DNA of 39,147 nt from an uncultured Candidatus Bathyarchaeia archaeon (GCA_964347855.1 CAYGAE010000003.1:1-39147), one strand, 5' to 3'. Shown: positions 4,340 to 36,117, numbered from the stretch's first letter. Notes: a model not told the origin generated them from the sequence alone. Numbers and translations: made by a program.

Positions 4340-4342
4340 TTT

Positions 4343-11486: not shown

Positions 11487-11508
11487 GTACTTTTCTCCTG
11501 TCTCTTAC

Positions 11509-16478: not shown

Positions 16479-16521
16479 TTTTGTTCTTCACTAAGAGATT
16501 GTCGTAAGTTGCGTGAATCAC

Positions 16522-17460
16522 ATGGAAAAACTGAAATTTGCCTTCTATTGGGCCGCCAGCTGCGGAGGTTGCGAAATAGCGGTGCTGGACATAAACGAAA
16601 AAATCCTAGATGTTGTTGCCAAGGCAGACATCCTCTTCTGGCCAGTAGCTATGGACATTAAATACAAAGATGTGGAGGCGTTTCCAGATAAACACATTGA
16701 TGTTTGCTTCTTTAATGGGGCAATTAGAAACGAAGAACAGGAACACGTAGCCAAACTCTTGAGACGAAAGTCTAAAGTTCTCGTGGCTTTCGGCTCCTGC
16801 GCCTGTGACGGATGTGTCGTAGGCCTTGCGAATCTCTGGGACAGAGAAACAGTCTTTGAACGAGCGTACCTTGAAACGCCTTCGACGAAAAACCCTGAAT
16901 CAGTGACACCGAAGACTTCTGTTAGGGTCAAAGAAGGAGAGTTGGAACTACCTGAATTTTACAACACTGTGAAAACCCTAGCCCAGACGGTAGACGTAGA
17001 CTATTTTCTCTCAGGGTGTCCCCCACCGATTCCCAGTATAGTTCAAGCGGTCGGAGCAATTTTCAACAATAAGTTGCCTCCGAAAGGAGCAAGTTTGCTA
17101 CCAACCAAGTCCATTTGCGATGAATGCCCCAGAGAGAAAAAGGACAAACAGCTCTCTGAAATAAGGAGAATCTACGAAATCGACGACGACCTAAAAACAT
17201 GCTTCTGGGACCAAGGGGTCATATGCATGGGTCCAGCTACACGAGCAGGCTGTGGCGCCCAGTGTCCAAACGTAAACATACCTTGCACAGGTTGCGATGG
17301 GCCAGGTCCACGCGTCACAGACCAAGGTGCTGCCGCAATCAGCGCACTTGCATCCATTGCAACTAATCCAGAAGTCATCAATCAGGTTGTGGATCCAGTT
17401 GGAACCTTCTACAAATACTCTCTTGCCAATTCAATTCTCAGGAGGAAGGTGATGAAATGA
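16522..17460 (+). CDS. mvhG: F420-non-reducing (group 3c-like) [NiFe]-hydrogenase small subunit
   Basis: FYWAASCGGCEIAVLD proximal-cluster motif plus further Cys clusters (GSCACDGC; CDECP; CGAQCPNVNIPCTGCDGP). The stop overlaps the mvhA start (ATGA). The ORF track begins at GTG 16513; ATG 16522 is preferred. Confidence 0.9.
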   Translation: MEKLKFAFYWAASCGGCEIAVLDINEKILDVVAKADILFWPVAMDIKYKDVEAFPDKHIDVCFFNGAIRNEEQEHVAKLLRRKSKVLVAFGSCACDGCVVGLANLWDRETVFERAYLETPSTKNPESVTPKTSVRVKEGELELPEFYNTVKTLAQTVDVDYFLSGCPPPIPSIVQAVGAIFNNKLPPKGASLLPTKSICDECPREKKDKQLSEIRRIYEIDDDLKTCFWDQGVICMGPATRAGCGAQCPNVNIPCTGCDGPGPRVTDQGAAAISALASIATNPEVINQVVDPVGTFYKYSLANSILRRKVMK

Positions 17461-18911
17461 AAGAAATAGTCATAGACCCGATCACAAGACTGGAAGGTCA
17501 TGGAAAAATCACCATATTCCTAAACGACCAGGGAAACGTGGAAAACGCCTACTTCCAAGTCCCCGAACTTAGAGGGTTTGAGCGGTTCTGCGAAGGAAGA
17601 AGGGCGGAAGACTTACCCATAATAACGACTAGAATCTGCGGAGTCTGCCCCGTTGCCCACCACATGGCGGGTGCAAAGGCGTTAGACGCGGCATTCAATG
17701 TGGAACCGACAGATCCGGCTAAGAAGTTGAGAGAGCTGGAGTATGTCTGCTACTATATCTACGATCACATATTGAATTTCTACTTTTTGGCTGCTCCAGA
17801 TTTCGTTGTAGGGCCAGACGCTCCACCAGCGAAAAGAAACATTCTTGGAGTGATAGAGAAAGTCGGCTTGGATATTGCCAAAGAAGTAATCAAACACAGG
17901 GCCTATGGACAGAAGATGACCGGCATAATCGGAGGGAGACCAACTCATCCAGTGAGCGCTTTACCAGGCGGCATATCCAAGGCACTGTCTGAGGAGGAAC
18001 GACAAGAAATCGAAAAAATGGTCAGAAGCTGCATCGAATTCGCAAAATTCTCACTGAAAATATTCGACGATGTTGTTCTCAAGAACGTTGACTACGTAAA
18101 CTTGATCAAAAGCGAGCCGTACACTTTAGAGACCTATTACATGGGAACTGTTGACAAAAACAACAAAGTAAACTTCTACGACGGCGATGTCCGAGTAATT
18201 GATCCGAAAGGAAAGGAGTTTGTGAAGTTTGCTCCCGCAGAATATTTGGATGTTATCGAAGAACACGTTGAACCGTGGACCTACGTCAAATTACCCTACC
18301 TCAAAAAGGTTGGATGGAAAGGTCTAGTGGCTGGGCCTGATAGTGGCATCTACAGAGTTGGCACCCTTGGAAGACTGAACGCCGCAGAAGGCATGGCGAC
18401 ACCCATAGCCCAAGAAGAGTACGCGAGGATGTACAAGACTCTGGGCGGCAAACCTGTTCACGCCACCTTGGCATTTCATTGGGCACGGCTGATAGAACTC
18501 ATGTACGCAACCGAACGAGCCTTGGAGTTGGTCACGGACAAGGAAATAACGAGCAAAAATATCAGGAATAAACCTGGAAACCCCGGCGAAGGAGTCGGAA
18601 TAGTCGAGGCTGCTAGGGGCACTCTGATTCACCATTATGTACTCGATGAAAAAGCCTTAGCCAAAAAGGTCAACTTGATAGTGGCCACAGTCAACAATGC
18701 ACCGAGCATTTGCATGTCCGTAAGAAACGCTGCAAAAGGCCTTATACGCAACGGCAAAGTCAGCGATGGACTTTTGAACATGGTGGAGATGGCTTTCAGA
18801 GCCTACGACCCCTGCTTTGCCTGCGCCACCCACTTCGCCATCGGTGAAATGCCGTTAAAAGCGGAGATTTACAACCATAAAAAGAGATTAATAAAGACCA
18901 TAGAAAGGTGA
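17457..18911 (+). CDS. mvhA: F420-non-reducing (group 3c-like) [NiFe]-hydrogenase large subunit
   Basis: RLEGHG, the N-terminal Ni-binding RICGVCPVAHH motif, and the C-terminal DPCFACATH motif. A ~25-aa tail follows, consistent with proteolytic maturation. Confidence 0.92.
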   Translation: MKEIVIDPITRLEGHGKITIFLNDQGNVENAYFQVPELRGFERFCEGRRAEDLPIITTRICGVCPVAHHMAGAKALDAAFNVEPTDPAKKLRELEYVCYYIYDHILNFYFLAAPDFVVGPDAPPAKRNILGVIEKVGLDIAKEVIKHRAYGQKMTGIIGGRPTHPVSALPGGISKALSEEERQEIEKMVRSCIEFAKFSLKIFDDVVLKNVDYVNLIKSEPYTLETYYMGTVDKNNKVNFYDGDVRVIDPKGKEFVKFAPAEYLDVIEEHVEPWTYVKLPYLKKVGWKGLVAGPDSGIYRVGTLGRLNAAEGMATPIAQEEYARMYKTLGGKPVHATLAFHWARLIELMYATERALELVTDKEITSKNIRNKPGNPGEGVGIVEAARGTLIHHYVLDEKALAKKVNLIVATVNNAPSICMSVRNAAKGLIRNGKVSDGLLNMVEMAFRAYDPCFACATHFAIGEMPLKAEIYNHKKRLIKTIER

Positions 18912-18921
18912 GGGATTAGCG

Positions 18922-21345
18922 ATGGAAAAGGCAAAAGTTGGAGTATTCCTGTCTGACTGCGGAGAACAGCTCTCTGAAATCCTGGACTTCAAAGCTCTAA
19001 CTGACTACGTGAAAACCGTTCCAGACGTAGTCCTTGTTGCGAGACGCAGTGAGTTTTGGCGGGGCCAAGGATTACAGGCAATTCTAGATGCTGTTAAAAG
19101 TGGAAAAATTAACAGAGTCGTTGTTGCGGAGAGCCTCCCGAAGCTAAGCGAGGTGAACATCGTTGAAGCCGTTGAAGAGGGAGGTCTTAATCCGTATTTG
19201 GTGGAAGTCATCGACCTGAAAGACCACTGCGCCTGGCCTCATCGGGAGACGCCTAAAGAAGCCACAGAAAAAGCCAAAGCCATGCTTCTAGCCGCCACCG
19301 AACGCGCCAGACTTCTCGAACCGATAGAGAAACTTGAGTTTCCAGCCCTCAAATCTGTCCTGGTCATTGGCGGAGGGATAGCGGGTATGCAGGCGGCTGT
19401 AGATTTGGCGGACTTGGGATTCGCCGTGAACCTGATTGAAAAGGAGCCGTTTCTCGGGGGCTTGGCTGCTCGCGCGGGGCGATTCTTCCCTACGGACGAT
19501 TGTGCCATCTGTATACAGTCTCCGGCTTCTGATGTGAAAACAATTACCCACACCTCAAGGAAGTGTGTGTACCGTTCCGGTTTCAGCGAGATTCCCAACC
19601 TAAACATACTGGCCAACTCAAGAGTCGTGGGTGTTGAAGGGGTTCCTGGAAACTATAAGGTCACAATAGAGAAGAAACCGAGATATGTTGACGAGCTGAA
19701 ATGTGTTGCGTGTGATTTATGCACCACCGTTTGCCCAGTGGAAGTACCTGACGAGTACAATGCGAAGCTGAAAACCCGCAAAGCCATCTACATGAACATT
19801 CCGAACGTTCATCCACCCGTTTACATCATCGACGAAAGCATCTGCAAATTCTACGACTGCGCCAAATGCGTGAATATCTGCCCGACCAAAGCCATAGAAT
19901 TAGATCAGAAAAGCGAGCAAATAACCCTAAACGTAGGCAGCATAATAATTGCCACAGGCTTCCAAGAGTGGGATTCCAGCATCATAAAGGAGTATCACTA
20001 CGATGACTACCAAGACGTGATAACCAACCTTGAACTCGCTAGGATGATCGACGGCTTCGGCCCCACGGGTGGCGTCATTATTAGACCTTCAGACCGCAAA
20101 CCTGCCAAGAAAATCGTCTTCATACAATGTGTGGGTTCAAGGGACAGACGATGGAATCCCTATTGCTCGAGCATCTGCTGCATGATTTCGCTAAAACATG
20201 CCTTATTAACGAAATCAGCCTATCCCGATACAGACATTACAGTATGTTACATTGATATAAGAACCACCGGAAGGCAGCACGAAGACTACTACGAACGAGC
20301 CAGAGAGTTGGGCGTAAAGTTCCTCAAAGGTAGACCAAGCGAAATCACACGGGACCCAGAGACTAATAAACTAATCGTAGACGTTGAAGACGAACTTCTG
20401 AAAAGAATCCTAGAATTAGACGCTGACCTAGTGGTGTTGGCTCCTGCCATGGTACCTTCTGAAGGAACCAAGGAACTTGCTCAGATTGGTTTTGAGCCTC
20501 TGTTGGATGAAGACGGCTTCTTCAAGGAGTACAACGCTAAACTGAGACCAACTGAAACCCGGCTTAGGGGGATATACATTTGCGGAGGAGCAACCTTCCC
20601 CAAGGATGCACCAACAACTTCCCTCCATGCACACTCGGCCGCTGTAAAGGCCGCCAAATTCATGACGACGGGCAAGATAGTCAAGGATCAGAGAACTGCC
20701 GTGATCAACGAAGAATTTTGTGGTGACTGCGAGTTCTGCCCGGTCACGTGTCCGTACGGTGCCATAACCCTGGTGCCAACCACTGAAAAGCACTTTGTGG
20801 CAGAAGTCTCGGATCTCATGTGCGAAGGATGCGGCATTTGTGTGGGTACTTGCCCTCTCAACGCCATCGAGCTCAGGCATTCGAGGCCCACCCAGATGCT
20901 GGCCCAGATGAAGGCACTCATGTCTGTAAATGGAACATCGAAGCCCTTGGTTCTGGCCATCTGTTGTTCAGAATGCGGTCACACCGCCATAGACTCTTCT
21001 GGCATGGCTATGATGCAGTATCCCGCCAACGTCAGAGTCATGAAAGTTCCTTGCACCGGAATTCTGCAAGTTCACCAACTCCTTGAGGCTTTCAAGGCGG
21101 GGGCTCAAGGAGTTATGGTTGTGGGATGCAAAAGCGACGGTTGCCACTACGAGATCGGTAGCCAGAAGGCTGAAAAGAAGGTGGAACTTGCCCGGATACT
21201 GCTGAAGGAATATGGTATAGCGCCAAAGAGGTTGGCGATGTTCAACATGGTTTTCATCGAAGGAGACAAATTTGCCGAGGCTGCACAAGCGATGACTGAG
21301 AGATTGGAAAAGTTGGGTCCACTGCAGTTTGCGGAAGGCCCCTAG
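18922..21345 (+). CDS. hdrA: HdrA-MvhD fusion protein (N-terminal domain depleted of cluster cysteines)
   Basis: 807 aa with the FAD fold (VIGGGIAGMQAAVDLADLG), GRFFPTDDC, inserted ferredoxin (CVACDLCTTVCP, CAKCVNICP), FIQCVGSRD, CSSICC, and C-terminal ferredoxin (CGDCEFCPVTCP, CEGCGICVGTCP). An MvhD domain follows (LAICCSECGH...VMKVPCTGIL...GAQGVMVVGCKSDGCHY). The N-terminus reads VGVFLSDCGEQL instead of VFVCHCGxNI. Confidence 0.9.
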   Translation: MEKAKVGVFLSDCGEQLSEILDFKALTDYVKTVPDVVLVARRSEFWRGQGLQAILDAVKSGKINRVVVAESLPKLSEVNIVEAVEEGGLNPYLVEVIDLKDHCAWPHRETPKEATEKAKAMLLAATERARLLEPIEKLEFPALKSVLVIGGGIAGMQAAVDLADLGFAVNLIEKEPFLGGLAARAGRFFPTDDCAICIQSPASDVKTITHTSRKCVYRSGFSEIPNLNILANSRVVGVEGVPGNYKVTIEKKPRYVDELKCVACDLCTTVCPVEVPDEYNAKLKTRKAIYMNIPNVHPPVYIIDESICKFYDCAKCVNICPTKAIELDQKSEQITLNVGSIIIATGFQEWDSSIIKEYHYDDYQDVITNLELARMIDGFGPTGGVIIRPSDRKPAKKIVFIQCVGSRDRRWNPYCSSICCMISLKHALLTKSAYPDTDITVCYIDIRTTGRQHEDYYERARELGVKFLKGRPSEITRDPETNKLIVDVEDELLKRILELDADLVVLAPAMVPSEGTKELAQIGFEPLLDEDGFFKEYNAKLRPTETRLRGIYICGGATFPKDAPTTSLHAHSAAVKAAKFMTTGKIVKDQRTAVINEEFCGDCEFCPVTCPYGAITLVPTTEKHFVAEVSDLMCEGCGICVGTCPLNAIELRHSRPTQMLAQMKALMSVNGTSKPLVLAICCSECGHTAIDSSGMAMMQYPANVRVMKVPCTGILQVHQLLEAFKAGAQGVMVVGCKSDGCHYEIGSQKAEKKVELARILLKEYGIAPKRLAMFNMVFIEGDKFAEAAQAMTERLEKLGPLQFAEGP

Positions 21346-21364
21346 AGAGGAGCGCGAAATCAGA

Positions 21365-21892
21365 ATGGAGCAGAAGAATGAAGAAAGAGCAAGCAGCGCC
21401 GCATTCTTCCGTGAAATTGTGAAGCGTTTAGGAGTCCGGCGGGCACGTCGCGCACGCACATGCTACCAGTGTGGAACCTGCGCCAGCAGTTGTCCAGTGG
21501 CTAAGATTACCTCACGTTTCAATCCCAGAGAAATCATGCTGCTCTCTCTTCGGGCAGAAAAGGATGAACTGATTTCAGGCGACGCCATATGGCTATGTTG
21601 CTCGTGCTTCAACTGCCAGGAAAGATGCCCGCAAAAGGTCGAAATAGCTGACTGCATCTACGCGCTGAGAAATATAGCTTTCAAGGAGGGTTACATCCCA
21701 AACATTTATTCAGACTTTGCTTCCGCCCTCCTAAATGACGGACGCATAGTCGGGGTTTCCAAATTCGTAGAAAAGAAAAGACCAACCCTCGGTCTACCCC
21801 CTCTACAACCCACGGGCGTGGACGCGCTAAAGAAAATCCTCTCTGCCACTGGATTTCACAAGTTGCAACAGAAGACGGAGGAAGCACAATGA
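21365..21892 (+). CDS. hdrC: Heterodisulfide reductase subunit C
   Basis: CYQCGTCASSCP and CCSCFNCQERCP motifs. ATG 21365 is preceded by GAGAGGAG; the ORF-track TTG 21329 would overlap the hdrA end. Confidence 0.88.
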   Translation: MEQKNEERASSAAFFREIVKRLGVRRARRARTCYQCGTCASSCPVAKITSRFNPREIMLLSLRAEKDELISGDAIWLCCSCFNCQERCPQKVEIADCIYALRNIAFKEGYIPNIYSDFASALLNDGRIVGVSKFVEKKRPTLGLPPLQPTGVDALKKILSATGFHKLQQKTEEAQ

Positions 21893-22764
21893 CAAGATAC
21901 GCTCTATTCCTAGGCTGCACCATCCCAGCTCGTCAACCAAACTACGAGTTATCAGCAAGAAAAGCGCTATCTAAACTTGGAATCGAACTTGTTGATCTAC
22001 CAAACATGACATGCTGTTGCCCTCCACCCATTCAATCAATAGATTTGGAAACCAGCTTAGCAGTAGCTACATACAACATTTGCCTAGCTGAAGAAGCCAA
22101 CCTCGAGATAGTCACGCTATGCAGCGGCTGTTTCGAGTCCCTCGCTATGGCAAACAGCATGCTAAAAGACGACGAACAACTGAAAGCAAAGATCAACAGA
22201 ATCTTGTCCGCAGCGGGAAAAGAATTTGTGGGCAGCAAGGAAGTGAAACACTTCCTTCAAGTTTTGGTGGACGATGTAGGACTAGAACGCCTTAAAGCGA
22301 GCGTCACCAAGCCGCTCAGCAACCTAAAAGTAGCGCCGTTCTATGGTTGCCACGCCCTTAGACCGAGTGAGCTACTGAGACTCGACGATCCAGAGCGTCC
22401 AAACATTCTAGAGAACTTAATTGAAGCTCTAGGTGCATCAACTGTCGAGTATCGGAACAAACTGAAGTGCTGTGGAGGTCTTCTAAGAGGTTACTCTGAC
22501 GATCTTGCCCTTGAACTCGCCAGTGAAAAACTTGCAAACACAACAAAGGCTGGTGCCGACTGCATTGCAACCCTTTGTCCCTTCTGCTTCATTGCCCTGG
22601 ACATGGGACAACTGCAGATAAAACATAAGCTCAACAAAGTCTACGATATGCCGATAATCCACTACTCAGAGCTCTTAAGCCTAGCATTGGGAGTAGATCC
22701 GAAGGAGCTTGCCCTTGAAAGCCATAAGATAAAAGCCGATAAAGTACTCAGCAAGATACTCTAG
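21889..22764 (+). CDS. hdrB: Heterodisulfide reductase subunit B
   Basis: 291 aa with two CCG domains (NMTCCCPPP...LCSGC; KLKCCGGLL...LCPFC). ATGA overlap with hdrC. Colinear with the 3464-4339 paralog. Confidence 0.92.
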   Translation: MTRYALFLGCTIPARQPNYELSARKALSKLGIELVDLPNMTCCCPPPIQSIDLETSLAVATYNICLAEEANLEIVTLCSGCFESLAMANSMLKDDEQLKAKINRILSAAGKEFVGSKEVKHFLQVLVDDVGLERLKASVTKPLSNLKVAPFYGCHALRPSELLRLDDPERPNILENLIEALGASTVEYRNKLKCCGGLLRGYSDDLALELASEKLANTTKAGADCIATLCPFCFIALDMGQLQIKHKLNKVYDMPIIHYSELLSLALGVDPKELALESHKIKADKVLSKIL

Positions 22765-24196
22765 TAACTGAACGCTGCTTATCTTTACTCTTTTTCTTTC
22801 TCATAACATACCTGTGAATACTGCGTGCTGCCTTCTTTCCTGCCCCCATGGCGCTGATGACCGTCGCTGCTCCGCTGACCACATCTCCACCAGCATAGAC
22901 TCCCTTTTTGCTGGTTTTTCCAGTTCCATCATTAACGATTATAGTACCCCATCTGGTGGTCTTTAGTCCCTTGGTAGTTCGTTGGATGATTGGATTTGGA
23001 GTTTGTCCTATGGCTATCACCACGGTGTCCACATCCATGAGGAATTCGGAGCCTTCTATGGGAACTGGTCTTCTTCGCCCTGATTCGTCTGGTTCTCCAA
23101 GCCGCATCTTTATGCATTCCATTCCTTTCACCCAGCCGCGTTCATCGCCTAGAAATCTGACAGGAACGGTGAGAAACCTGAATCTTATTCCCTCCTCCTC
23201 TGCGTTTTCTATTTCTTCCAGTCTAGCAGGCATTTCCTTCCTAGACCTTCGATAAACAATCCATACCTCTGCTCCCAGCCTTAACGAACATCTCGCAGAG
23301 TCCATGGTAACGTTGCCGCCGCCTATCACTGCAACCTTCTTGCCTACTCTAATTGGGGTGTCGTATTCCGGAAACATGTAAGCTTTCATTAGGTTCACTC
23401 GGATCAGGAATTCGTTGGCTGAGTATATTCCACCAAGGTTCTCTCCGGGTATTCGCATGAAGCGGGGAAGCCCTGCCCCGGTACCGACGAAGACGGCGTC
23501 AAACCCGCGATCAATCAACTCATCTATTGTGTATAACCTTCCGATCATGTGGTCAGTTTTGAACTCAACGCCAAGCTTTTTGACGTAATCAACCTCGGCT
23601 TGCACTATTTTTTTGGGTAGCCTAAATTCTGGGATTCCGTACATAAGTACGCCGCCTGGGGCATGAAGCGCTTCGAATATGACAACCTCATGTCCAAGTC
23701 TTGCCAAATCTGCTGCTGCTGTGAGTCCAGCAGGTCCAGATCCCACAACCGCCACTTTTCCGCGCGTGGATGACCTTGATTTGGGCGGAATAGTGACTCC
23801 TCTCTGGAGTTCGTAGTCAGCGACAAACCTCTCTAACCTTCCAATAGCCATGGAGTCTCCCTTCTTGCCAAGTACACAAAACTTTTGACATTGGCTTTCT
23901 TGTGGACAAACTCGGCCACAAATTGATGGTAGGCTATTCTTTTCCTTTACAATTCTGATGGCTTCGCCGAAGTTTTTTTCTCTGATCGCTTTAATAAATG
24001 CGGGTATGTCTACTTCCACGGGGCAGCCTTGTATACACTGGGGTCTAGGACACTGTATGCACCTTTCAGCTTCTGCCACGGCTTGCTCCTCTGAGTAGCC
24101 CAGTGCCACTTCGTTGAAGTTGTGGATGCGTTCTTTTGGGTCTTGTTTGAGCATGGGAACTGTTTCTTTTCTGATTTTGGGTTTGGGCTTGCTCAT
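22748..24196 (-). CDS. nfnB: NfnB/SudA/GltD-family NADPH-dependent FAD/[4Fe-4S] oxidoreductase (large subunit)
   Basis: 482 aa: CIQCPRPQCIQGCPVEVDIPAFIKAIREKNFGEAIRIVKEKNSLPSICGRVCPQESQCQKFC, VAVVGSGPAGLTAAADLARLG, VAVIGGGNVTMDSA, GVYAGGD. The start overlaps the nfnA stop. Confidence 0.85.
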   Translation of the reverse strand: MSKPKPKIRKETVPMLKQDPKERIHNFNEVALGYSEEQAVAEAERCIQCPRPQCIQGCPVEVDIPAFIKAIREKNFGEAIRIVKEKNSLPSICGRVCPQESQCQKFCVLGKKGDSMAIGRLERFVADYELQRGVTIPPKSRSSTRGKVAVVGSGPAGLTAAADLARLGHEVVIFEALHAPGGVLMYGIPEFRLPKKIVQAEVDYVKKLGVEFKTDHMIGRLYTIDELIDRGFDAVFVGTGAGLPRFMRIPGENLGGIYSANEFLIRVNLMKAYMFPEYDTPIRVGKKVAVIGGGNVTMDSARCSLRLGAEVWIVYRRSRKEMPARLEEIENAEEEGIRFRFLTVPVRFLGDERGWVKGMECIKMRLGEPDESGRRRPVPIEGSEFLMDVDTVVIAIGQTPNPIIQRTTKGLKTTRWGTIIVNDGTGKTSKKGVYAGGDVVSGAATVISAMGAGKKAARSIHRYVMRKKKSKDKQRSVTRVSC

Positions 24197-25020
24197 AGGC
24201 TTCTTCCTCCCTTCTCATAAAATACGAATGCAAGCTTCTCTTCAGGAGAATACATTTTCAGCCGAGCCATCAACTCTTCAAAATCAACTTGATGCCCATC
24301 GAAGTCTGGGCCGTCAACGCAAGCGAACATTGTTTTGCCGCCGACGGTTACTCTGCATGCTCCACACATTCCCATCCCATCCACCATTAATGGAATCAGG
24401 GTCACAATTGTGGGTGTGTTGTATGGACGAGTGAGTTCTGAAACTGTTTTCATCATTACTATTGGGCCCATGGCTACTACGCGGTCGATCTTCTCTTCTT
24501 TGAACAGGTTTTCAATGAAGTCTAGTCCCTTGTGACCCTTTGTTCCGTCATCTGTGGCCACATAAAGCTCATCGCATGCCTCTCGCATTTCTTTTTCAAA
24601 AATTAGTTGGCTTTCCGTTCTAGCTCCTAGTACTCCTATGACCCTGTTGCCCACCTCGTGGAAGGCCTTGGCTTGGAAACGTAGAGGAGCCACCATCACT
24701 CCTCCACCAATGCAAAGCACGGTTCCAAACATCTCGATTTCAGCAGGTTTTCCCAGGGGGCCTAACAAGTCTAGGATGTGGTCTCCTTCTTCTAATTTTC
24801 CAAGCTTTTTAGTTGTTTTGCCAACTTCGTGGCAGACCACTGTTATCGTTCCTTTTTCAACGTCTGCATCAGCGGTAGTAAGTGGAATCCTTTCTCCATG
24901 TTCATCTATTCTCAAAATTACGAATTGTCCAGGTTTTGTTTTTGCGGCTACTTCCCTTGCTGAAAACTCGAATAGGTTAATGTGGGGAACCAGTTCCCGT
25001 TTCGTCACGATCCTATACAA
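24193..25020 (-). CDS. nfnA: NfnA/SudB (PyrK-like) FAD/[2Fe-2S] small subunit
   Basis: 275 aa: PGQFVILRIDEHGERIPLT (FAD-binding barrel), LCIGGGVMVAP, and C-terminal MVDGMGMCGACRVTVGGKTMFACVDGPDFDGHQVDF, as in characterised NfnA. It begins 1 nt after the upstream hdrA-mvhD stop. Confidence 0.85.
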   Translation of the reverse strand: MYRIVTKRELVPHINLFEFSAREVAAKTKPGQFVILRIDEHGERIPLTTADADVEKGTITVVCHEVGKTTKKLGKLEEGDHILDLLGPLGKPAEIEMFGTVLCIGGGVMVAPLRFQAKAFHEVGNRVIGVLGARTESQLIFEKEMREACDELYVATDDGTKGHKGLDFIENLFKEEKIDRVVAMGPIVMMKTVSELTRPYNTPTIVTLIPLMVDGMGMCGACRVTVGGKTMFACVDGPDFDGHQVDFEELMARLKMYSPEEKLAFVFYEKGGRSL

Positions 25021-25021
25021 C

Positions 25022-27160
25022 CTAGTCGCCTCTTTCCTTAACCCTTAAAGGATTTGGTCCAAGTTTCCTTATCTTTTCCACAAAATTCGTCATCATGGTC
25101 GCAAATTTCTGCCCTTCAGATGATGAAGCGAACTCTATTTCGAGGCGTTCCGGGTCTATGTGGAGGGTTTTCAGGGCCTTTTTCATTACGTCCACTCTGC
25201 TTTTTGCCTTCACGTTACCATCGATGTAATGGCAGTCGCCTATGAGGCATCCCGTTATGATAACTCCATCGGCACCATTCAGGAAAGCCTCCATGGCATG
25301 AAACACATCCACTCTTCCGCTGCATGGAACTCTTAGGATTCGAACATTCGGTGGATATTGGATCCTTGAGACCCCTGCGAGGTCAGCCGCCGCGTAAGAA
25401 CACCATTGACATGCAAAGCACAATACGATGGGTTCGAAGCTTTCGTTTGGACTCGTAAGCTTCTTCGGTTTTAGCAGCGCCTCAATTGCTGCCACAATCT
25501 GTTCATCCTTAAAGTGTATGAGTTGCATAGATCCCATTGGGCATTCTGCTGCGCACACACCGCAACCTTTACAGTTAGCTTCAATGATGTAGGGCTGTCC
25601 GAAGGGTGAAGCCGCAATAGCGTCAAAAATACATGAGACCACGCACGCATCGCAACCGACGCATATCTCCATGTCAACCGAAGCTTTTACAGCGTTAGTC
25701 TTTATTTTTCTGGCGGCCATTGGAATGCCTGCTCTGGAGGCTGCAGCATAAGCTTGAGCGATGCTTTCAGTGACGTCTTTTGGTCCGTGGGCAGTGCCGC
25801 AGACATATATCCCCTCTGATGCAAAGTCAACTGGTCTTAGTTTTGGATGAGCCTCCATAAAGAAGCCGTCGGAACCTACAGGAACCTTTAGTGTGGAAGA
25901 GAGTTTTCTCCCACCCTCGTGCTGAATCAGAGGTGTTGATAAGACGACCAAGTCGCTGTCCATCTCAATTTCAGCGTCTAAATACGCGTCGTAAACTGTG
26001 ACGGCTAACTTTCCATCAGCTTTTGAGGTTACTTGTGGAGGTTTGTCCTGCTCATAACGTATGAAGTTGATGAAGTTCTCCCTTGCTTCAAGATAAGAAT
26101 CTTCGTATTCAGCGTAAGTTTGCAGGTCTCTGAAAAGGATGCTGATTTCCACATTTGGATACAATTTTTTGAGTAGCATAGCATTGTTGAGGGCTACCAT
26201 GCAACATATTCTTGAACAGTATGTTCTGCCAGTTTTTTCTCTAGCTCCCACACATTGGATCATAACAACTCTTTTAGGTTTCTCGAGTTCGCCTTTTTTG
26301 AGAAGCTGCTCAAGTTCGAGCTGTGTTACAACGTTTTCATTTTCCTTGTACTCGTACATTCCCACCGGCTTGAACTCATTGGCTCCGGTGGCCACTATTA
26401 TTGTTCCTACATTAATTTGTTCAGGTTCATTGGAATCCTTCTTTTGAAGCATCACGTCAAAGCTTCCAATGAACCCTTTTGCTTCTTGAACGAGGGTTGA
26501 CAGGTGAAGATGTATGTTGCTGTTCGCCTTCACGGCTGTGACCAACTCTTGAAGAACTTCTGAAGCGTCACGTTCGGTGGGCTGCAGCTTGTGTAGATGT
26601 CTCAGCATTCCGCCTAGCTCTGCTTCTTTCTCAACCAGGTGAACATTGAAGCCTTGTCTTGCAATGGACATGGCCGCAGCCATTCCAGCGATTCCGCCGC
26701 CTATCACCATTGCTGAAGGTTTTATCTCGAGTTCTGGCTCTGTTTGAGGTTCAAGGTGGCTTGCTTTGGCGACAGCCATTCTAATGAGGTCTTTGGCTTT
26801 CTCTGTGGCCTCTTCTGGACGGTGCATGTGAACCCATGAGGAATGCTCTCGGATGTTTACCATTTCAAAAAGGTACTTGTTTAATCCTGCTTCTTCGCAT
26901 GCCTTTCTGAAGACCGGTTCATGGGTCGCGGGTGTGCAGGATGCACCCACGACCCGGTTGAGGTTACACTTCTTTATGCGTTCTTTGATCAGACTTAATC
27001 CTGCGGATGAGCACAAGTAAAGGTTTTCCTCGGCGCAGACAACATTAGGCAGAGTTTTGGCATACTCCACAACCTTTGGAACCTCAATCACTCCGCCTAT
27101 GTTGAAGCCGCAGTGACAGACGAAAACCCCAATCCTCAACTCTTCCTTGGCTGGTTCCAT
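25022..27160 (-). CDS. hdrA: HdrA-like (insert-less) flavoprotein fused to MvhD (QmoB-like architecture)
   Basis: 713 aa from ATG 27160: MEPAKEELRIGVFVCHCGFNIGG, VIGGGIAGMAAAMSIARQG, IQCVGAREK, CSRICC, C-terminal ferredoxin (CVGCDACVVSC, CKGCGVCAAECP), and an HFKDEQIVAAI tail. The MvhD domain follows (LCFACQWCSYAAADLAG...ILRVPCSGRVD...GCLIGDCHY). Colinear with residues ~448-1006 of the 1006-aa protein plus the stand-alone MvhD. Confidence 0.88.
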   Translation of the reverse strand: MEPAKEELRIGVFVCHCGFNIGGVIEVPKVVEYAKTLPNVVCAEENLYLCSSAGLSLIKERIKKCNLNRVVGASCTPATHEPVFRKACEEAGLNKYLFEMVNIREHSSWVHMHRPEEATEKAKDLIRMAVAKASHLEPQTEPELEIKPSAMVIGGGIAGMAAAMSIARQGFNVHLVEKEAELGGMLRHLHKLQPTERDASEVLQELVTAVKANSNIHLHLSTLVQEAKGFIGSFDVMLQKKDSNEPEQINVGTIIVATGANEFKPVGMYEYKENENVVTQLELEQLLKKGELEKPKRVVMIQCVGAREKTGRTYCSRICCMVALNNAMLLKKLYPNVEISILFRDLQTYAEYEDSYLEARENFINFIRYEQDKPPQVTSKADGKLAVTVYDAYLDAEIEMDSDLVVLSTPLIQHEGGRKLSSTLKVPVGSDGFFMEAHPKLRPVDFASEGIYVCGTAHGPKDVTESIAQAYAAASRAGIPMAARKIKTNAVKASVDMEICVGCDACVVSCIFDAIAASPFGQPYIIEANCKGCGVCAAECPMGSMQLIHFKDEQIVAAIEALLKPKKLTSPNESFEPIVLCFACQWCSYAAADLAGVSRIQYPPNVRILRVPCSGRVDVFHAMEAFLNGADGVIITGCLIGDCHYIDGNVKAKSRVDVMKKALKTLHIDPERLEIEFASSSEGQKFATMMTNFVEKIRKLGPNPLRVKERGD

Positions 27161-27164
27161 TTGG

Positions 27165-28478
27165 CTATCCCCACACAAGGGTAGAACAGGCCACCTCTGC
27201 AGCTTTGGCTGCGGCCGCACTGGCTTGCGTAACGGATTCAGAAATATCCTTGGGCGCTTGACAATATCCACAAACAAAGACTCCTTCCACTTTTGTCTCA
27301 ACAGACATAAGCAATGGGTCTTTGGTTTTGAAGAAACCATATTCATTCAATTCTAAACCAAGAATTTTTCCCAAAACCTCATTGTCATCTCTCGGAACTA
27401 GAGCCGGACAAAGCACAACCAAATCTGCACGCAATTCTTCCATTTTCCCTTTTGTGATATCTTCGTATCGAACAAAAAGATCCTTTGTCGCTGGATCTTC
27501 TATGACTGCAGAGACGCGTCCATTAACGTATTTGACACCCCATTGGTCTCTGGCTCTAGTGACGAACTCTTGGAACCGTTTCCCAAACACTCTTAAATCA
27601 ATATACAAAATGTAAACTTCACATTGAGGTTCGTGCTCTCGGACTAAGATCGCCTCTTTTGTGGCGTACATGCAACAGACGCTGGAGCAGTATGGGAACC
27701 CCTTCTGTTGAGTTCTTGAGCCAACGCATTGGGCAAAAACTATCTTGCGAGGATGTTTATTATCTGAAGGCCTCAAAAGTTCTCCACGAGTCGGCCCAGA
27801 AGCGTTAATGAGCCTTTCAAATTCCAGCGATAAAAGAACATTCTTGTATCGTTTATAACCGTACTCACTTATCGACATCGGATCGTAAAGTTCTAAGCCT
27901 GTAGCCAATATTATACTTGAAACACTAAACGTCATTCTCTTGGGTTTTTGATCGAAGTTGATTGCGTGGGCCTGACAAAATTTTTCGCACACTCGACATA
28001 CTCCTTTCTGAAAGAAGAGGCAATTGTCCTTGTCTATTATGGCTATACGGGGCACTGCCTGTGGAAAAGGCATGTAGACGGCTTTCCGCATTCCCACGCC
28101 CATATCGAATTCGCTTGGCACCTTAACTGGGCATTTTTCTGAGCACGCACCGCAACCAGTACATTTGTCAGCGTCAATAAACCTTGGGTTTTTCAAAACC
28201 TCAACCTTGAAGTTTCCAGCAGAGCCCCTAACTTCCTTAACTTCTGAGCATGTGAGCAGCTTGATGTTTGGGTGACGGAAGCACTCAATCATTTTTGGCG
28301 CGAGTATGCATATAGAACAATCCATTGTTGGGAATGTCTTATCAAGCTGAGCCATTCGCCCCCCGATGCCTGGGGATTTCTCGACGAGATATACTTTGAG
28401 CCCTCTGTCAGCGAGGTCCAAAGACGCTTGTATTCCAGCTATGCCTCCGCCAACTACAAGTACAGCATTGTTGCCCAA
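27165..28478 (-). CDS. hdrA: HdrA-like FAD + inserted-ferredoxin module only (QmoA-like size)
   Basis: 437 aa: VVGGGIAGIQASLDLADRG, QLDKTFPTMDC, CTGCGACSEKCP, CLFFQKGVCRVCEKFC, FAQCVGSR, CSSVCC. Colinear with residues 1-~430 of the 1006-aa protein. Its stop is 4 nt before the next ATG. Confidence 0.88.
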   Translation of the reverse strand: MGNNAVLVVGGGIAGIQASLDLADRGLKVYLVEKSPGIGGRMAQLDKTFPTMDCSICILAPKMIECFRHPNIKLLTCSEVKEVRGSAGNFKVEVLKNPRFIDADKCTGCGACSEKCPVKVPSEFDMGVGMRKAVYMPFPQAVPRIAIIDKDNCLFFQKGVCRVCEKFCQAHAINFDQKPKRMTFSVSSIILATGLELYDPMSISEYGYKRYKNVLLSLEFERLINASGPTRGELLRPSDNKHPRKIVFAQCVGSRTQQKGFPYCSSVCCMYATKEAILVREHEPQCEVYILYIDLRVFGKRFQEFVTRARDQWGVKYVNGRVSAVIEDPATKDLFVRYEDITKGKMEELRADLVVLCPALVPRDDNEVLGKILGLELNEYGFFKTKDPLLMSVETKVEGVFVCGYCQAPKDISESVTQASAAAAKAAEVACSTLVWG

Positions 28479-28627
28479 GTCGATTCCTCAAATGTTTGCA
28501 TACATGCTGGCGCAAATCAGTTCCCATGTGGATAGGAGACCCGTGTCTCATCTCCTTTGAAGGAGAGTAGTTCACTTCCTAACTTGAAACTTAAACCTTT
28601 CTCTCAACCCTTCACAAACGTAGGGAA

Positions 28628-29572
28628 TCATGCTTTGTAGTAGTATGGCCTTTTAATGTAGCCGAACGCTTCACTAGCCGCAATTATGGCCTGGCCAACA
28701 GCCGTTCCAACTTGCTTCACAGGACCGTTAGTTACATCGCCAGCAGCGAAAACTCCGCCAACGCTTGTTCTCTGGCGGTTATCCACGATAATGTAGCCAG
28801 CCTTATCCACTTCTATTCCCGCTTCTTTGGCGATCTGGCTGTTTGGCGCCTCACTGATTTGAACGAATACACCGTCAACCTTCATCTCTCTGGTTTCGCC
28901 TGTTCTGTTGTTTACTAAGACGACGCCTTTTACTTTGGTGTCTCCCTTTACTTCTTTGAGCTCTGTGTTCCACATAATTTCCACCCCTTGTGCAACCAGG
29001 TCCTTCACAAGGGCCTCTTCTGCCCTGAGTTGGTCCTTCCGGTGAGCCAGCTTGACCTTGGAAGCTATATTTGCGAGGTATCTAGCAGAAATTACTGCCG
29101 AATTGCCACCGCCCACCACTAGTACGTTTCCTTCTTTGAAGAAGGCTCCGTCGCATAATGCGCAGTAACTGACTCCCTTTCCTCGAAATTCGGTCTCACC
29201 TGGCACTTCAAGAGTTCCATAGTGGCTTCCGGAGGCAATGATTACTGCTGAGGCTTTGCGAACTGCTCTATTCGTCTTAAGAGTTTTCTTTTCACCTCTA
29301 AGATCCAGTTCAACAACCTTTTCTAATTCATGAATCGTCGCCCCAGCGTTTCTACATTGTTTCGCCATTTTGTCAGCTAAGTTATGGCCACTAATTGCTT
29401 CAAAGCCGGGGTAATTTTCGACCAACGGAGTGTCAACGATTGCCCCACCAACCACTTTCTCGTCCAGAACTAGGGTTTTGAGTCCACTGCGAGCACCGTA
29501 CAAGCCTGCGGTTAAACCTGCTGGACCTGCGCCTATAACGACCAAATCCCACTGTTCCACTTTTGTCACCAT
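28628..29572 (-). CDS. Thioredoxin-reductase-like (low-Mr TrxB family) flavoprotein
   Basis: 314 aa: DLVVIGAGPAGLTAGLYGARSG, redox CxxC (SYCALCDGAFF), VVGGGNSAV, HRKDQLRA (NADPH-type motif), GVFAAGDV. Confidence 0.85.
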   Translation of the reverse strand: MVTKVEQWDLVVIGAGPAGLTAGLYGARSGLKTLVLDEKVVGGAIVDTPLVENYPGFEAISGHNLADKMAKQCRNAGATIHELEKVVELDLRGEKKTLKTNRAVRKASAVIIASGSHYGTLEVPGETEFRGKGVSYCALCDGAFFKEGNVLVVGGGNSAVISARYLANIASKVKLAHRKDQLRAEEALVKDLVAQGVEIMWNTELKEVKGDTKVKGVVLVNNRTGETREMKVDGVFVQISEAPNSQIAKEAGIEVDKAGYIIVDNRQRTSVGGVFAAGDVTNGPVKQVGTAVGQAIIAASEAFGYIKRPYYYKA

Positions 29573-29596: not shown

Positions 29597-31978
29597 TTAA
29601 TCTTCCACTTCCGCTTTCTGTTGAAGCTTTTCTTTGATGCTTTCTCGAATATCCCTTGAGATAGCGCCCATTCTTGAAATTCTTTCGTTGAACATTTCGA
29701 ACGTGTTGGTCACTTTGCCGTATTCGGGAAGCGTCGTAGAGAAGGACATTAGTCGGAGGGGTTTGACGCCATACGCCCCCAGCTCCTTCTTCATCTGGAT
29801 AACATGTTCCCTCAAGGCTTCCTCCGTGAAGACACCACCATGGGCCTCCAGTAGAACAACGCCATCAGCCCCAGAGGCGAAGGCATGCAACACATGTTTC
29901 AAACCGATTCGTCCTGTCGTGGGGACGCTGACTATTTCGACGTTGGGAGAATAAGATACTCGCGACTGCCCAGCCAAATCCGCAGCGCCGTAGGCTATCT
30001 CCTTTTCTAGGAAGGCGATGATCTTTGGTGATTTGCCGCCTTGGCTCACTGCTTCAATTTGAGCCATCAACTGGGCTTCGGTTGAATTCCGTAGGTCAAT
30101 CGCTTCTCTGGGACACCTTGGCACACAGATGCCACATCCAATACACACCATCGGGTTGATCGTCATACCAGTCGGCGATTCCTCCACCGCTGCCACGGGG
30201 CACACTTCAACGCAGACCCTGGACTTGTCACATCTATCTGGATCGATGTAAGCCACTTCTGGCGAAACGGAGATTTCGCCTTTACCAAGGAAGGTGGCGA
30301 CTCTGGAAGCGGTTGACATGGCTTCCAAGGTCGTTTCTCTGACATCTTTGGGACTCAAGGCGCAGCCAGCAACGAAAACCCCCTCTCGCTGACTATCCAC
30401 CGGCTTGAGTTTGTAATGCCTTTCCAAAAGAAAACCGTCCGAACCAGTCTGAATACCCAACTTCTTAGCCAGTTCTGGAGTGTCTGGTTTGGATATTATT
30501 CCAGTAGTGAGCACAACCAGGTCAAATTTTCCTTCCACTTTAGTACCGAGAAGAGTGTCTTCTGCCTTCACCAGTATTTCATCGTTTTTCAATGGCACAA
30601 CCTCCGCCACGCGGCCCCTGACAAATCGCACGTTGTGATCTTGGGCGGTGAGATAGAATTCTTCGTACCCTTTTCCATCAGCCCTTATATCGGTGTAGAA
30701 GATCCATGGCTCGGCGTCAGGAACGATCTTTTGGAGTAACATAGCCTGCTTAATCGCAGCCATACAGCCTATCTTACAGCAATGCTTTACTCCTGGTTCC
30801 TTGTTCATCATTCGGCTGCCCACGCAGAGTATGAAGGCTACTCGCTTAGCCACTTTTTCATTAGAGGGCTTGCGCATCTCACGACCTAAGAGTCTCTCCA
30901 ATTGCAGGTTCGTTACAATGTCTGGGTGTAGACCGAAGGCATACTCTTCAAAGGATGTGGGGTCAACTTGCTCAAATCCAGTGCAAGCAACGATTGCGCC
31001 CACGTCGAGCTCAATAGTTTCTTCCTTCTGATCGAAATCAATGGCGTTACCTTTACAGAATTTCTCGCAAACCCTGCAAACTCCCTTAGTGAAGAATAAG
31101 CAGTTGTCTTTATCGATCAGGTATGTTCTCGGAACTGCCTGCTGAAAGGGTATGTGAATGGCTTTTCGCTTGTATAAGCTAGCTTCGAATTCGCTTGGCA
31201 CCTTGGCAGGGCAAACCTTCTCACACTCGCCACAGCTTATACATTTTGAGGCGTCCACAAATCGTGGGTGCTGCTTAACTAAGACTCTATAGTTGCCAGG
31301 AGACCCCTCGACGGCAACGGGCTCTGCCATGCTAATGATCTTTATGTGTGGGTGTTGACCAGCATCCACCATTCTCGGCGTCAGGATGCACTGGGAGCAG
31401 TCAAGGGTGGGAAAGGTTTTACTAAGCTGGGCCATATGTCCGCCTATGCTTGGACCCTTCTCCACTAAGTATACCAGATGACCTTTGTCCGCCAACTCAA
31501 GGGAAGCCATGATACCGGAGACCCCGCCCCCAATCACAAGGACATCCCTATTCACTGGTAGGCTCTTCGTCTCCAGCGGCTCGAGATAGTGAGCCCGAGC
31601 CACCATGCCGCGAATAAGATCTGTTGCCTTGGATGTTGCAGCCTCTACGTCGTCGTGCGCCCAGCTGACCTGTTCTCTGATGTTGGCCATGTCTAGAAAG
31701 TAGGGGTTCAAGCCGGCCGATTTCACAGTTCGCCTGAAGGTGTCTAGGTGCATGCGGGGTGAACATGAAGCCACTATTATTCTGTTAAGACCATGCTCCT
31801 TGATTCCATGGGTTATCATCTCTTGTCCCGGGTCGCTGCACACGTATTCGTAGGTTTCAGCAATCTTCACTCCTTGGAGTTTCATGACTTCTTCTTTGAC
31901 TTTCTCTACGTCCACGGTGTCGCTTATGTTTCCCCCGCAGTGGCAGATGTATACGCCTATCTTGATTTCTTCTGACAT
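29597..31978 (-). CDS. hdrA: HdrA-like flavoprotein with a C-terminal MvhD-homologous domain that lacks all cluster cysteines
   Basis: MSEEIKIGVYICHCGGNISD, VIGGGVSGIMASLELADKG, QLSKTFPTLDC, CISCGECEKVCP, CLFFTKGVCRVCEKFC, ILCVGSR, C-terminal ferredoxin (CDKSRVCVEVCP, CIGCGICVPRCP). The tail then reads IIAFLEKEIAYGAADLAGQSRVSYSPNVEIVSVPTTGRIG...GADGVVLLEAHGGVF. Start chosen at ATG 31978 (GGAGA upstream); the ORF track extends to 32038. Confidence 0.85.
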   Translation of the reverse strand: MSEEIKIGVYICHCGGNISDTVDVEKVKEEVMKLQGVKIAETYEYVCSDPGQEMITHGIKEHGLNRIIVASCSPRMHLDTFRRTVKSAGLNPYFLDMANIREQVSWAHDDVEAATSKATDLIRGMVARAHYLEPLETKSLPVNRDVLVIGGGVSGIMASLELADKGHLVYLVEKGPSIGGHMAQLSKTFPTLDCSQCILTPRMVDAGQHPHIKIISMAEPVAVEGSPGNYRVLVKQHPRFVDASKCISCGECEKVCPAKVPSEFEASLYKRKAIHIPFQQAVPRTYLIDKDNCLFFTKGVCRVCEKFCKGNAIDFDQKEETIELDVGAIVACTGFEQVDPTSFEEYAFGLHPDIVTNLQLERLLGREMRKPSNEKVAKRVAFILCVGSRMMNKEPGVKHCCKIGCMAAIKQAMLLQKIVPDAEPWIFYTDIRADGKGYEEFYLTAQDHNVRFVRGRVAEVVPLKNDEILVKAEDTLLGTKVEGKFDLVVLTTGIISKPDTPELAKKLGIQTGSDGFLLERHYKLKPVDSQREGVFVAGCALSPKDVRETTLEAMSTASRVATFLGKGEISVSPEVAYIDPDRCDKSRVCVEVCPVAAVEESPTGMTINPMVCIGCGICVPRCPREAIDLRNSTEAQLMAQIEAVSQGGKSPKIIAFLEKEIAYGAADLAGQSRVSYSPNVEIVSVPTTGRIGLKHVLHAFASGADGVVLLEAHGGVFTEEALREHVIQMKKELGAYGVKPLRLMSFSTTLPEYGKVTNTFEMFNERISRMGAISRDIRESIKEKLQQKAEVED

Positions 31979-32201
31979 CTTTATGTCTCCGGTTGTGATG
32001 GTCTCGAAGTGGCTTTTAGAATTAAGCATAATCACCATTTAAACTCTTAAACATCTCGCTTAAAACCTCTAGATGTCAAAGCAGACAATCTTGACCAAGT
32101 AGAATCGTTCTCTCATGTCTTACTTTTAGCACAAGAGCCAAAAGCGCGCAGATTCTCCCAGGCTTTGGTTTTTTCACTTTATTGGCAATCTCTTGATAAG
32201 G

Positions 32202-35679: not shown

Positions 35680-36117
35680 TCACATGATACTTACATTTTG
35701 TATTTCGAAATATCGTTTCGCCAAAAATCGGATTCGTTCAGCGTTTCTCCCATTCTTGCCGATGGCGATCCCTTTATCCCTCGGGTTTACAGAAACCACA
35801 GCAATGGTTTTCCCGTCTGGGCGTTCAGTTATGCGTATCTCCTTCACCCGAGCCGGTTTTAGAGCATTCTTGATGAATTGAGCTGGATTTTCTGCGTGTT
35901 CGATGACTTCATGCTTTTTGCCAGTCATTCTCTCTAGGAGACGGATGTTTTTGCCTCGTCTTCCTATGGCCATTCCTACCTCTCCTTCCTTTACAACAAA
36001 GATTATTCGGTTCAGATCGTCGTCGACTATGCAGTCCCTTACAGCTGCGCCGGTTATGCTTTCAAATAAGGCTATGAACCGCATCTCATGACTTGTCAAC
36101 TTGATTCCGCTAGACAT
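35680..36117 (-). CDS. nusA: Archaeal NusA-like transcription factor (two KH domains)
   Basis: 145 aa with GMAIGRRGKNIRLLE and GIAIGKNGRNAERI KH GXXG motifs, in the conserved position downstream of rpl30e. Confidence 0.9.
   Translation of the reverse strand: MSSGIKLTSHEMRFIALFESITGAAVRDCIVDDDLNRIIFVVKEGEVGMAIGRRGKNIRLLERMTGKKHEVIEHAENPAQFIKNALKPARVKEIRITERPDGKTIAVVSVNPRDKGIAIGKNGRNAERIRFLAKRYFEIQNVSIM

Follow-up and report, generated by a model that had tools for sequence, protein, structure and literature searches.

The 39,147-nt stretch of an uncultured Candidatus Bathyarchaeia archaeon (GCA_964347855.1, CAYGAE010000003.1:1-39147), analysed over its whole length and referred to as the window, contains on its minus strand an operon in which two HdrA paralogues, the second of them fused to MvhD, are followed by a complete nfnA-nfnB pair. 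Gene order and residue-level features of this operon point to one soluble redox machine of the Bathyarchaeia, a candidate NADPH-linked electron-bifurcating complex. The four genes and the presumed promoter element are located as follows (gene calls based on open reading frames (ORFs) and homology, the promoter element on sequence inspection):

28584..28605, minus strand: candidate archaeal B recognition element (BRE)/TATA-like element, GAGAGAAAGGTTTAAGTTTCAA
28478..27165, minus strand: short HdrA paralogue, 437 aa, termed HdrA-N in the initial annotation
27160..25022, minus strand: long HdrA paralogue fused to MvhD (HdrA'::MvhD), 712 aa
25020..24193, minus strand: NfnA (NfnS)-type subunit, 275 aa
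24196..22748, minus strand: NfnB (NfnL)-type subunit, 482 aa

All four genes were confirmed at the positions listed, and the junctions, read in the sequence, show the gaps of 4 nt and 1 nt as well as the 4-nt overlap that had been noted initially. Short hdrA and hdrA'::mvhD are joined by TAG-ccaa-ATG, hdrA'::mvhD and nfnA by TAG-g-TTG, and nfnA and nfnB overlap in ATGA (24193-24196). In case of the 712-aa gene, the automatic ORF list places the start at the upstream ATG 27346, which would yield a protein of 774 aa. Since the orthologues comprise 710-712 aa, the start was set at ATG 27160. The BRE/TATA-like element is situated in the 149-nt spacer between a thioredoxin reductase (TrxR)-like gene and short hdrA. 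It is kept in the window, L086, and L165, and boxes similar to TTTTATAAG and TTTTATGAG are found at the equivalent site in L003, L005, and L148 (L-numbers denote loci obtained by encoding-contig look-ups, a species-genome scan, and a metagenome scan). The presence of this candidate box suggests that the four genes form a transcription unit with its own promoter. The spacer also contains two short hairpins (28536-28567, minus strand), CTCTCCT-tcaa-AGGAGA and GAGAC-acgg-GTCTC, neither of which is followed by a T-run; the former is partly conserved in L086.

For all four products, the homology is far beyond chance. Both HdrA proteins score approximately 490 bits against solved HdrA chains and share the motifs GGGIAG, CVG(S/A)R...YCS..CC, and G..PKD. 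All HdrA paralogues of the window were aligned to HdrA of M. thermolithotrophicus, the numbering of which (5odc_A) is used here. The short HdrA spans residues ~145-562 of the reference (499 bits in the PDB alignment) and has relatives in at least 116 clusters at an identity of at least 72%. It contains a complete thioredoxin-reductase-fold FAD domain, the inserted 2x[4Fe-4S] ferredoxin domain with 8 Cys, Cys194/Cys197 (DCSIC), the HA4 cluster motif (CVGSR..YCSSVCC), and both Lys409 (CCMYATKEA) and Glu356. The N-terminal domain, the C-terminal ferredoxin domain, and MvhD are missing. HdrA'::MvhD aligns to HdrA residues 9-246 and 318-654 and continues into MvhD. This protein possesses the N-terminal Cys-rich domain (CHCG), a complete FAD (thioredoxin-reductase) domain, the HA4 motif, and the C-terminal 2x[4Fe-4S] ferredoxin domain, and lacks the inserted ferredoxin domain as well as Cys194/Cys197, with LQPTERDASEV replacing DCSIC. 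Lys409 is changed to Asn (CCMVALNNA) and Glu356 is retained. Its C-terminal MvhD (FlpD) domain (Pfam FlpD, 171 bits) scores 140-149 bits against the MvhD chains 7bkb_F, 8rvu_F, and 5odc_D and keeps the Cys pattern CFACQWC..PCSG..GC..DC.

The initial annotation had described this pair as a split HdrA and named the first product HdrA-N. Due to the complete FAD domain in each product, a single HdrA gene cut in two was rejected, and HdrA-N turned out to be no N-terminal half, but the member of the pair that is devoid of the N-terminal domain. Tandem and fused HdrA of anaerobic methanotrophic archaea (ANME; HdrA5/6, 12/13, and 3/4) carry the N-terminal domain in one partner and Cys197 in the other, a complementarity interpreted as an HdrA dimer that, being a heterodimer, is no longer two-fold symmetric (Chadwick et al. 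2022; PMC9012536). The same pattern is found here: the 712-aa protein has the N-terminal domain and no Cys197, and the 437-aa protein shows the reverse. As judged from the alignments, the two proteins are complementary trimmed paralogues, which jointly would provide one complete HdrA electron path, compared to two in the homodimer. Lys409 and Glu356 at the flavin N5 were proposed as the mark dividing bifurcating from non-bifurcating HdrA-type sites (PMC12054007, PMC6405883). By this criterion, a bifurcation-competent flavin is predicted only in the short subunit. With regard to the earlier designation of HdrA as the bifurcating subunit, this signature is retained in full at one of the two flavin sites.

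NfnB scores 608 bits to NfnB of T. maritima (4ylf_B) and 589 bits to NfnI-L of P. furiosus (5jca_L). It contains a full Fer4_20 domain (Pfam model positions 1-112 of 113), and alignment to both references revealed both [4Fe-4S] motifs, including the Glu ligand in CPQE. Arg201 and Arg333 (P. furiosus numbering), located near b-FAD, are kept in the aligned segments EFRLPK and EMPAR, and the YRR NADPH motif is present. Sequence criteria for a true NfnB, among them an nfnA gene directly ahead that is separated from nfnB, or overlaps it, by a few nucleotides, have been published (PMC12221290). With respect to all of them the predicted NfnB is canonical, and NfnAB is by these features a bona fide NfnSL-type pair, in agreement with the identity assigned initially. 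NfnB of the window ends with a 17-residue basic C-terminal tail (RKKKSKDKQRSVTRVSC, 22748-22800), which is missing in the orthologues (465-475 aa). Due to this extension, nfnB overlaps the 3' end of a convergent hdrB gene by 17 nt (22748-22764).

NfnA scores 313 bits against NfnI-S of P. furiosus (5jca_S) and 255 bits against 4ylf_A. One Asp and three Cys are kept to ligate its [2Fe-2S] cluster, in alignment with NfnA of T. maritima and P. furiosus (MVDGMGMCGACRVTVGG..FACVDGP). In place of the canonical NAD(H)-binding glycine loop (GGGVG..YP), NfnA of the window contains GGGVMVAPLRFQ. The NAD-binding subdomain is altered in every HdrA-linked orthologue: GGGVG is changed to GGGVM (GGGVF in L003), YPxAKA to xFQAKA, and three residues are deleted following the KG motif. 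A VM loop occurs in 120/120 of the closest NfnA clusters, 116 of which have exactly GGGVM. The loop position was alignable in 144 of 150 representatives from diverse NfnA-like clusters; 126 of the 144 have Gly and a single one has Met. The sole other Met-loop NfnA representative, P0245, is located on a 993-bp contig. The stand-alone NfnA of BA-type Bathyarchaeota (L001) has a canonical loop.

The GxGxxP rule is general to the dinucleotide-binding fold of the FNR family, and on this ground the exchange of Gly for Met would be expected to impair NAD(H) binding. This suggests that NAD+ is no longer the partner of NfnA, or not its sole partner. Comparing the window (22748-25020) with L001 (2651-4916), identity amounts to 85% for NfnB and 55% for NfnA, which suggests that either NfnA, and not NfnB, diverged with the linkage to HdrA or a recombination took place. 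In ten long representatives analysed by Pfam, NfnA-like domains are fused to TrxR-fold, NfnB, GltD-like, and NuoG/Fdh-like modules. One of the natural fusions, P0249 (613 aa), combines a TrxR-fold flavoprotein with an NfnA-like domain; its TrxR-fold part is devoid of a CxxC motif and 28% identical to the TrxR-like protein of the window.

The operon-like coupling noted initially is borne out and conserved across loci. The order short hdrA, hdrA'::mvhD, nfnA, nfnB occurs in 14 distinct contigs besides the window (15 loci in total), including the 1.28-Mb Bathyarchaeota chromosome CP070709.1 (L165). Those of the contigs that are named are all from Bathyarchaeia, and all named relatives belong to the Bathyarchaeota/Bathyarchaeia. 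Except for L100 (65%), the short HdrA of the linked contigs is at least 73% identical to that of the window (13 of 14), and wherever the identity of the short HdrA reaches 73% or more and the downstream DNA suffices, the four-gene order is present. In a species-level genome scan with a short-HdrA profile, NfnAB was found downstream in one of the best 80 loci, the Bathyarchaeia metagenome-assembled genome L005 (75% identity). At none of these 80 loci did NfnA and NfnB follow a short HdrA of 63% identity or less in any other lineage, and some loci in this range have only GltD-like or PyrK-like genes downstream. The scan result implies that the arrangement is not widespread beyond one Bathyarchaeia clade. 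The four-gene operon appears confined to a Bathyarchaeia clade, yet abundant in metagenomes.

Three features accompany the linkage. Every Nfn-linked locus encodes HdrA' as a fusion with MvhD. BA-type genomes (L001, L006) have the HdrA pair without this fusion, and mvhD is a separate gene; there the pair precedes mvhD-HTH (helix-turn-helix), a fused large hdrA, mvhD, hdrCB, and mvhGA. In L001, nfnAB is located elsewhere beside a TrxR gene, in the order TrxR-NfnA-NfnB, and no nfnAB was found within the fetched stretch of the L006 contig. The long HdrA has lost Lys409 in the window as well as in 13 of 14 linked contigs; N is the usual substitute, whereas L003 has T, L093 has D, and L137 has G. 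Lys409 is kept in L001, L006, and L095, in which no nfnAB follows the pair or the downstream DNA is missing. MvhD fusion, Lys409 loss, and the altered NfnA loop thus go along with the linkage, and the co-occurrence of Lys409 loss and GGGVM with it favours functional coupling over accidental adjacency. The hdrA'::mvhD/nfnA junction measures 0-1 nt across orthologues of ~70-90% identity.

Natural variants of the operon exist as well. In L148 (8132-10834), L154 (1525-4254), and L167 (4114-6855) the short HdrA comprises 900-913 aa due to a GltD-like domain of ~470 aa inside the ferredoxin domain (type III architecture), and hdrA'::mvhD-nfnA-nfnB still follows. The ferredoxin port is occupied in these three loci and NfnAB is nevertheless present, so that NfnAB is no simple duplicate of the port. 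The corresponding complexes would have three pyridine-nucleotide-type sites. In L100 and L095, a GltD-like gene is located ahead of the hdrA pair.

The operon of the window is flanked by the following genes:

16513..22764, plus strand: mvhG-mvhA-hdrA::mvhD (807 aa)-hdrC-hdrB (Pfam Oxidored_q6, NiFeSe_Hases, FlpD, Fer4_8, and CCG twice)
28628..29572, minus strand: TrxR-like flavoprotein, 314 aa (TIGR01292, 334.8 bits versus a cut-off of 343.45)
29597..32038, minus strand: full-length HdrA::MvhD, 813 aa (Pfam and alignment)

No HdrB (CCG-domain) or HdrC gene is a member of the four-gene operon, as had been noted initially. For the locus as a whole, this statement has to be revised: hdrC and hdrB lie on the plus strand at 21329..22764 and run convergently towards nfnB, with the 17-nt overlap mentioned above, and a second hdrC-hdrB pair is located at 3464..4894. 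A convergent mvh-hdr arrangement also occurs in L166, and in L167 hdrA::mvhD-hdrC-hdrB follows the four-gene operon co-directionally. The missing HdrBC or hydrogenase module might be supplied by the convergent mvh-hdr cluster. Nearby candidates for the third redox partner, which the initial annotation had regarded as unknown, are the HdrCB of the window, L166, and L167, an HdrD-like gene that in L003 and L087 precedes the TrxR-like gene, and the TrxR-like protein itself. The 807-aa HdrA::MvhD of the convergent cluster (18922-21345, plus strand) lacks the Cys of its N-terminal domain (SDCG and AESLP compared to CHCG and AACSP) and keeps Cys194/197, directly followed by a 14-residue insert.

The TrxR-like protein has a CALC (CxxC) motif and an HRKD..R NADPH-type motif. 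Its gene is situated upstream of the module in the window, L003, L005, L086, L087, L148, L165, and L166. The 813-aa hdrA::mvhD gene lies 24 nt ahead of it, with equivalent positions in L086, L165, and L166. The MvhD-like domain of the 813-aa protein is without any Cys and thus cannot bind a [2Fe-2S] cluster; the HA4 motif of this protein, HCCKIGCM, is unusual. In four lineages a glutamate dehydrogenase (GDH) gene is located directly upstream of short hdrA on the same strand (L088:676-1953, L154:2-1219, L166:4058-5338, and L167:2656-3936). The TrxR-like and GDH neighbours point to NADPH metabolism, and the GDH gene might indicate a connection with the catabolism of amino acids and the turnover of NADPH.

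Considering these observations, we tentatively prefer, with a confidence slightly short of an even chance, a reading in which NfnAB serves an asymmetric HdrA heterodimer as pyridine-nucleotide module, docked via the fused MvhD, with a high-potential acceptor supplied in trans. The HdrA pair would form this heterodimer with one bifurcation-competent FAD, in the short subunit. The fused MvhD would dock NfnAB, and electrons would pass between NfnAB and the HdrA pair via MvhD. To our knowledge, all Hdr complexes characterised use MvhD as adaptor for docking of their electron-input module (MvhAG, FdhAB, MetFV, and Flx). Due to this role and since NfnAB is the only candidate in the operon, an electron exchange between NfnAB and the HdrA pair by way of MvhD is most likely, which would connect NADPH with the HdrA flavin. 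NADPH, oxidised at NfnB, would replace H2 or formate as mid-potential donor and could in several relatives be supplied by the upstream-encoded GDH; alternatively, the direction may be reversed with the NADPH side acting as acceptor. The short HdrA, with its inserted ferredoxin domain as port, would reduce ferredoxin, and high-potential electrons would exit via HA4 to a module encoded outside the operon, with HdrC/HdrB of the adjacent cluster or an HdrD-like protein as candidates.

Several points weigh against this reading. The pairing of NfnAB with HdrA is deduced from sequence and gene order, and so is their physical contact. A search of 5.8 billion proteins with a chimeric MvhD+NfnA query for an MvhD-NfnA fusion returned only unfused NfnA with a coverage of at most 67%, and neither HdrA nor MvhD is fused to an NfnA-like domain in the ten long representatives mentioned above. 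The all-canonical NfnB and its 85%-identical counterpart in the stand-alone TrxR-NfnAB of L001 make an autonomous Nfn plausible. Furthermore, Lys409 is kept in the Nfn-linked L100, no CCG-domain gene was found within 9 kb in L165, and the exchange of Gly for Met is presumed to affect NAD(H) binding on the basis of what is generally known of the FNR family.

Alternatively, the two systems could be independent enzymes that are merely co-transcribed, which would reflect a shared regulation of redox-balancing genes. NfnAB would then be an ordinary ferredoxin-dependent transhydrogenase balancing NADPH, e.g., for TrxR or GDH, and the HdrA heterodimer would find its partners in HdrBC or MvhAG encoded elsewhere. 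The fully canonical NfnB, the likewise canonical cluster ligands of NfnA, the location of nfnAB with TrxR and apart from the hdrA pair in BA-type Bathyarchaeota, the frequent HdrBC gene neighbours, and the missing MvhD-NfnA fusion are in agreement with this explanation. We nevertheless regard it as rather unlikely, since the tight hdrA'::mvhD/nfnA junction is kept across the orthologues, MvhD fusion, Lys409 loss, and GGGVM all track the linkage, and an MvhD adaptor without a donor module in the operon would be left unexplained.

The absence of HdrBC from the operon would also be accounted for if NfnAB replaced HdrBC instead of MvhAG, reducing NAD(P)+ at the HA4 exit, while MvhD docks MvhAG in trans. 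Oxidation of H2 would be coupled to the reduction of ferredoxin and NAD(P)+, resulting in a [NiFe]/HdrA analogue of the bifurcating [FeFe] hydrogenases. At an H2 potential of -414 mV this reaction is thermodynamically favourable by established values, and mvhG-mvhA are at hand in the convergent clusters of the window and L166. However, no hydrogenase is encoded in the 9-10 kb retrieved to either side of the query gene in L165, L003, and L005, the mvhGA cluster next to the operon encodes an HdrA::MvhD and HdrCB of its own, and the NfnB clusters are non-homologous to those of HdrC. We know of no precedent for NfnAB in the position of HdrBC and consider this arrangement improbable. A serial, chained bifurcation, as raised in the initial annotation, appears slightly less probable again. 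Here, b-FAD of NfnB would split the electrons of NADPH, and one branch would reach, via NfnA or NfnB and then MvhD, the FAD of the short HdrA, which would bifurcate again. Two intact bifurcation signatures are co-encoded (Arg201/Arg333 of NfnB and Lys409/Glu356 of the short HdrA), the NAD site of NfnA is altered, and double-bifurcation schemes were proposed for other Hdr clusters (PMC12054007). On the other hand, Lys409 is lost in the long HdrA, and neither an energetic scheme nor the terminal acceptors can be derived from the sequence. HdrA-NfnB/GltD fusions are already published.

Returning to NfnAB as the docked pyridine-nucleotide module, it is tempting to speculate that NfnA of this lineage gave up NAD(H) altogether and that the MvhD/HdrA heterodimer is the 'X' partner of an Xfn-like Nfn, with two flavins in series. 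We consider this extension improbable. If true, b-FAD of NfnB and FAD of the short HdrA would be the flavins in series, NADPH, e.g., from GDH, would drive the reduction of ferredoxin at two ports, and a disulfide or other high-potential sink would be used by this two-port scheme.

A second Hdr cluster is present in the window (2904-12099, minus strand). It encodes two GcvH-like proteins of 196 and 197 aa, a 577-aa GltD-like protein with a C-terminal 2x[4Fe-4S] domain, a 257-aa fusion of an MvhD domain to an ArsR-type HTH, a 1006-aa fused double HdrA, MvhD, HdrC, HdrB, and a HycI protease. The 1006-aa HdrA (5314..8334) is a fused form of both subunit types of the tandem pair. The MvhD-HTH fusion could be a redox-sensing regulator, and the lipoate-carrier-like GcvH proteins recall the sulfur-oxidising sHdr systems. 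Besides this cluster, a 924-aa ORF (31-2805, plus strand) has no Pfam match at E <= 1e-5, and Rfam and tRNA scans of the window gave no matches. The following archaeal genes are located at the other end of the window:

35680..39147: genes for RpoA, an L7Ae/L30e-family protein, and a KH/NusA-like protein (archaeal)

Bathyarchaeia are abundant sediment archaea without methanogenesis, and their many Hdr paralogues have unsettled roles. If NfnAB and the HdrA pair are indeed joined, an Nfn-Hdr complex would constitute a new link between the NADPH pool and ferredoxin in energy-limited archaea. The locus represents a compact testable candidate, a set of four genes with two signature substitutions and, for comparison, several natural variants, and could also exemplify what replaces NAD(H) in Xfn-type Nfn enzymes. 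Flavin-based electron bifurcation has been assigned to four independently evolved flavoprotein families, including Nfn and Hdr (PMC5861303). In the literature searched, Nfn and Hdr were not reported as parts of one machine.

The individual ingredients of the operon are known, i.e., heterodimeric HdrA, MvhD-fused HdrA (type Ia), GltD/NfnB-inserted HdrA (type III), NfnAB, and Xfn. A complete nfnA-nfnB pair behind tandem hdrA/hdrA::mvhD was not described in the literature searched, with the review of Appel et al. 2021 outside its coverage, and neither was the loss of Lys409 and GGGVM accompanying this linkage. QmoAB of sulfate reducers consists of a short HdrA-like and a long HdrA-like protein ending in an MvhD-like domain. 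The HdrA proteins of the window, in contrast, score best to HdrA2-type models, and membership in QmoAB was rejected, since neither QmoC (an HdrC/HdrE-like membrane subunit) nor aprAB occurs among the annotated ORFs of the window.

Compared to the methanogen MvhADG-HdrABC complex (5ODC, 7BKB, and 8RVU), the HdrA fold, the HA4 motif, the FAD site with Lys409 and Glu356 (here in the short subunit), the inserted and C-terminal ferredoxin domains, and the MvhD [2Fe-2S] adaptor are shared. Differences are the two trimmed HdrA paralogues, which presumably form a heterodimer instead of a homodimer, the fusion of MvhD to one of them, and NfnAB in place of the hydrogenase and HdrBC. FlxABCD-HdrABC of bacteria is an NADH-linked Hdr complex with the same MvhD-type connection. 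Likewise, a pyridine-nucleotide-linked module is joined to HdrA through an MvhD-type protein in the bacterial MetFV-HdrABC-MvhD (PMC5861303). The NAD(H) modules of both complexes are NuoF-like or MetF-type and co-encoded with HdrBC, whereas NfnAB is found here.

The complementarity of N-terminal domain and Cys197 in adjacent genes is shared with heterodimeric HdrA of ANME (PMC9012536) and type II HdrA (PMC12054007). The clusters of these proteins contain FdhAB/FrhB-like or HdrBC partners and belong to methane-metabolising archaea, and none was described with separate nfnA-nfnB; here, Lys409 is also lost in one partner. HdrA of type III, into which an NfnB/GltD-like domain is inserted, is represented by HdrA9-11 of ANME-1 and by class A10 in Bathyarchaeota (PMC9012536, PMC12054007). 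Both type III HdrA and the operon tie an NfnB/GltD-type NAD(P)H flavoprotein to HdrA, but the 437-aa short HdrA of the window is without insert, and NfnB is separate, complete, and encoded together with NfnA after the MvhD fusion.

With NfnAB of T. maritima (4YLF) and NfnI of P. furiosus (5JCA), the operon shares the order nfnA-nfnB with the 4-nt overlap, the cluster ligands, Arg201, Arg333, and the NADPH motif, but here the pair is embedded in an hdrA operon. A precedent for an altered Nfn is provided by NfnII/Xfn of P. furiosus (5VJ7), in which the NAD(H) site is occluded and the high-potential partner 'X' is unassigned (PMC12221290). The small-subunit loop reads GGGVG in NfnI, GAYTG in Xfn, and GGGVM in the window, so that the deviation from the NfnI loop is common to Xfn and the HdrA-linked NfnA.

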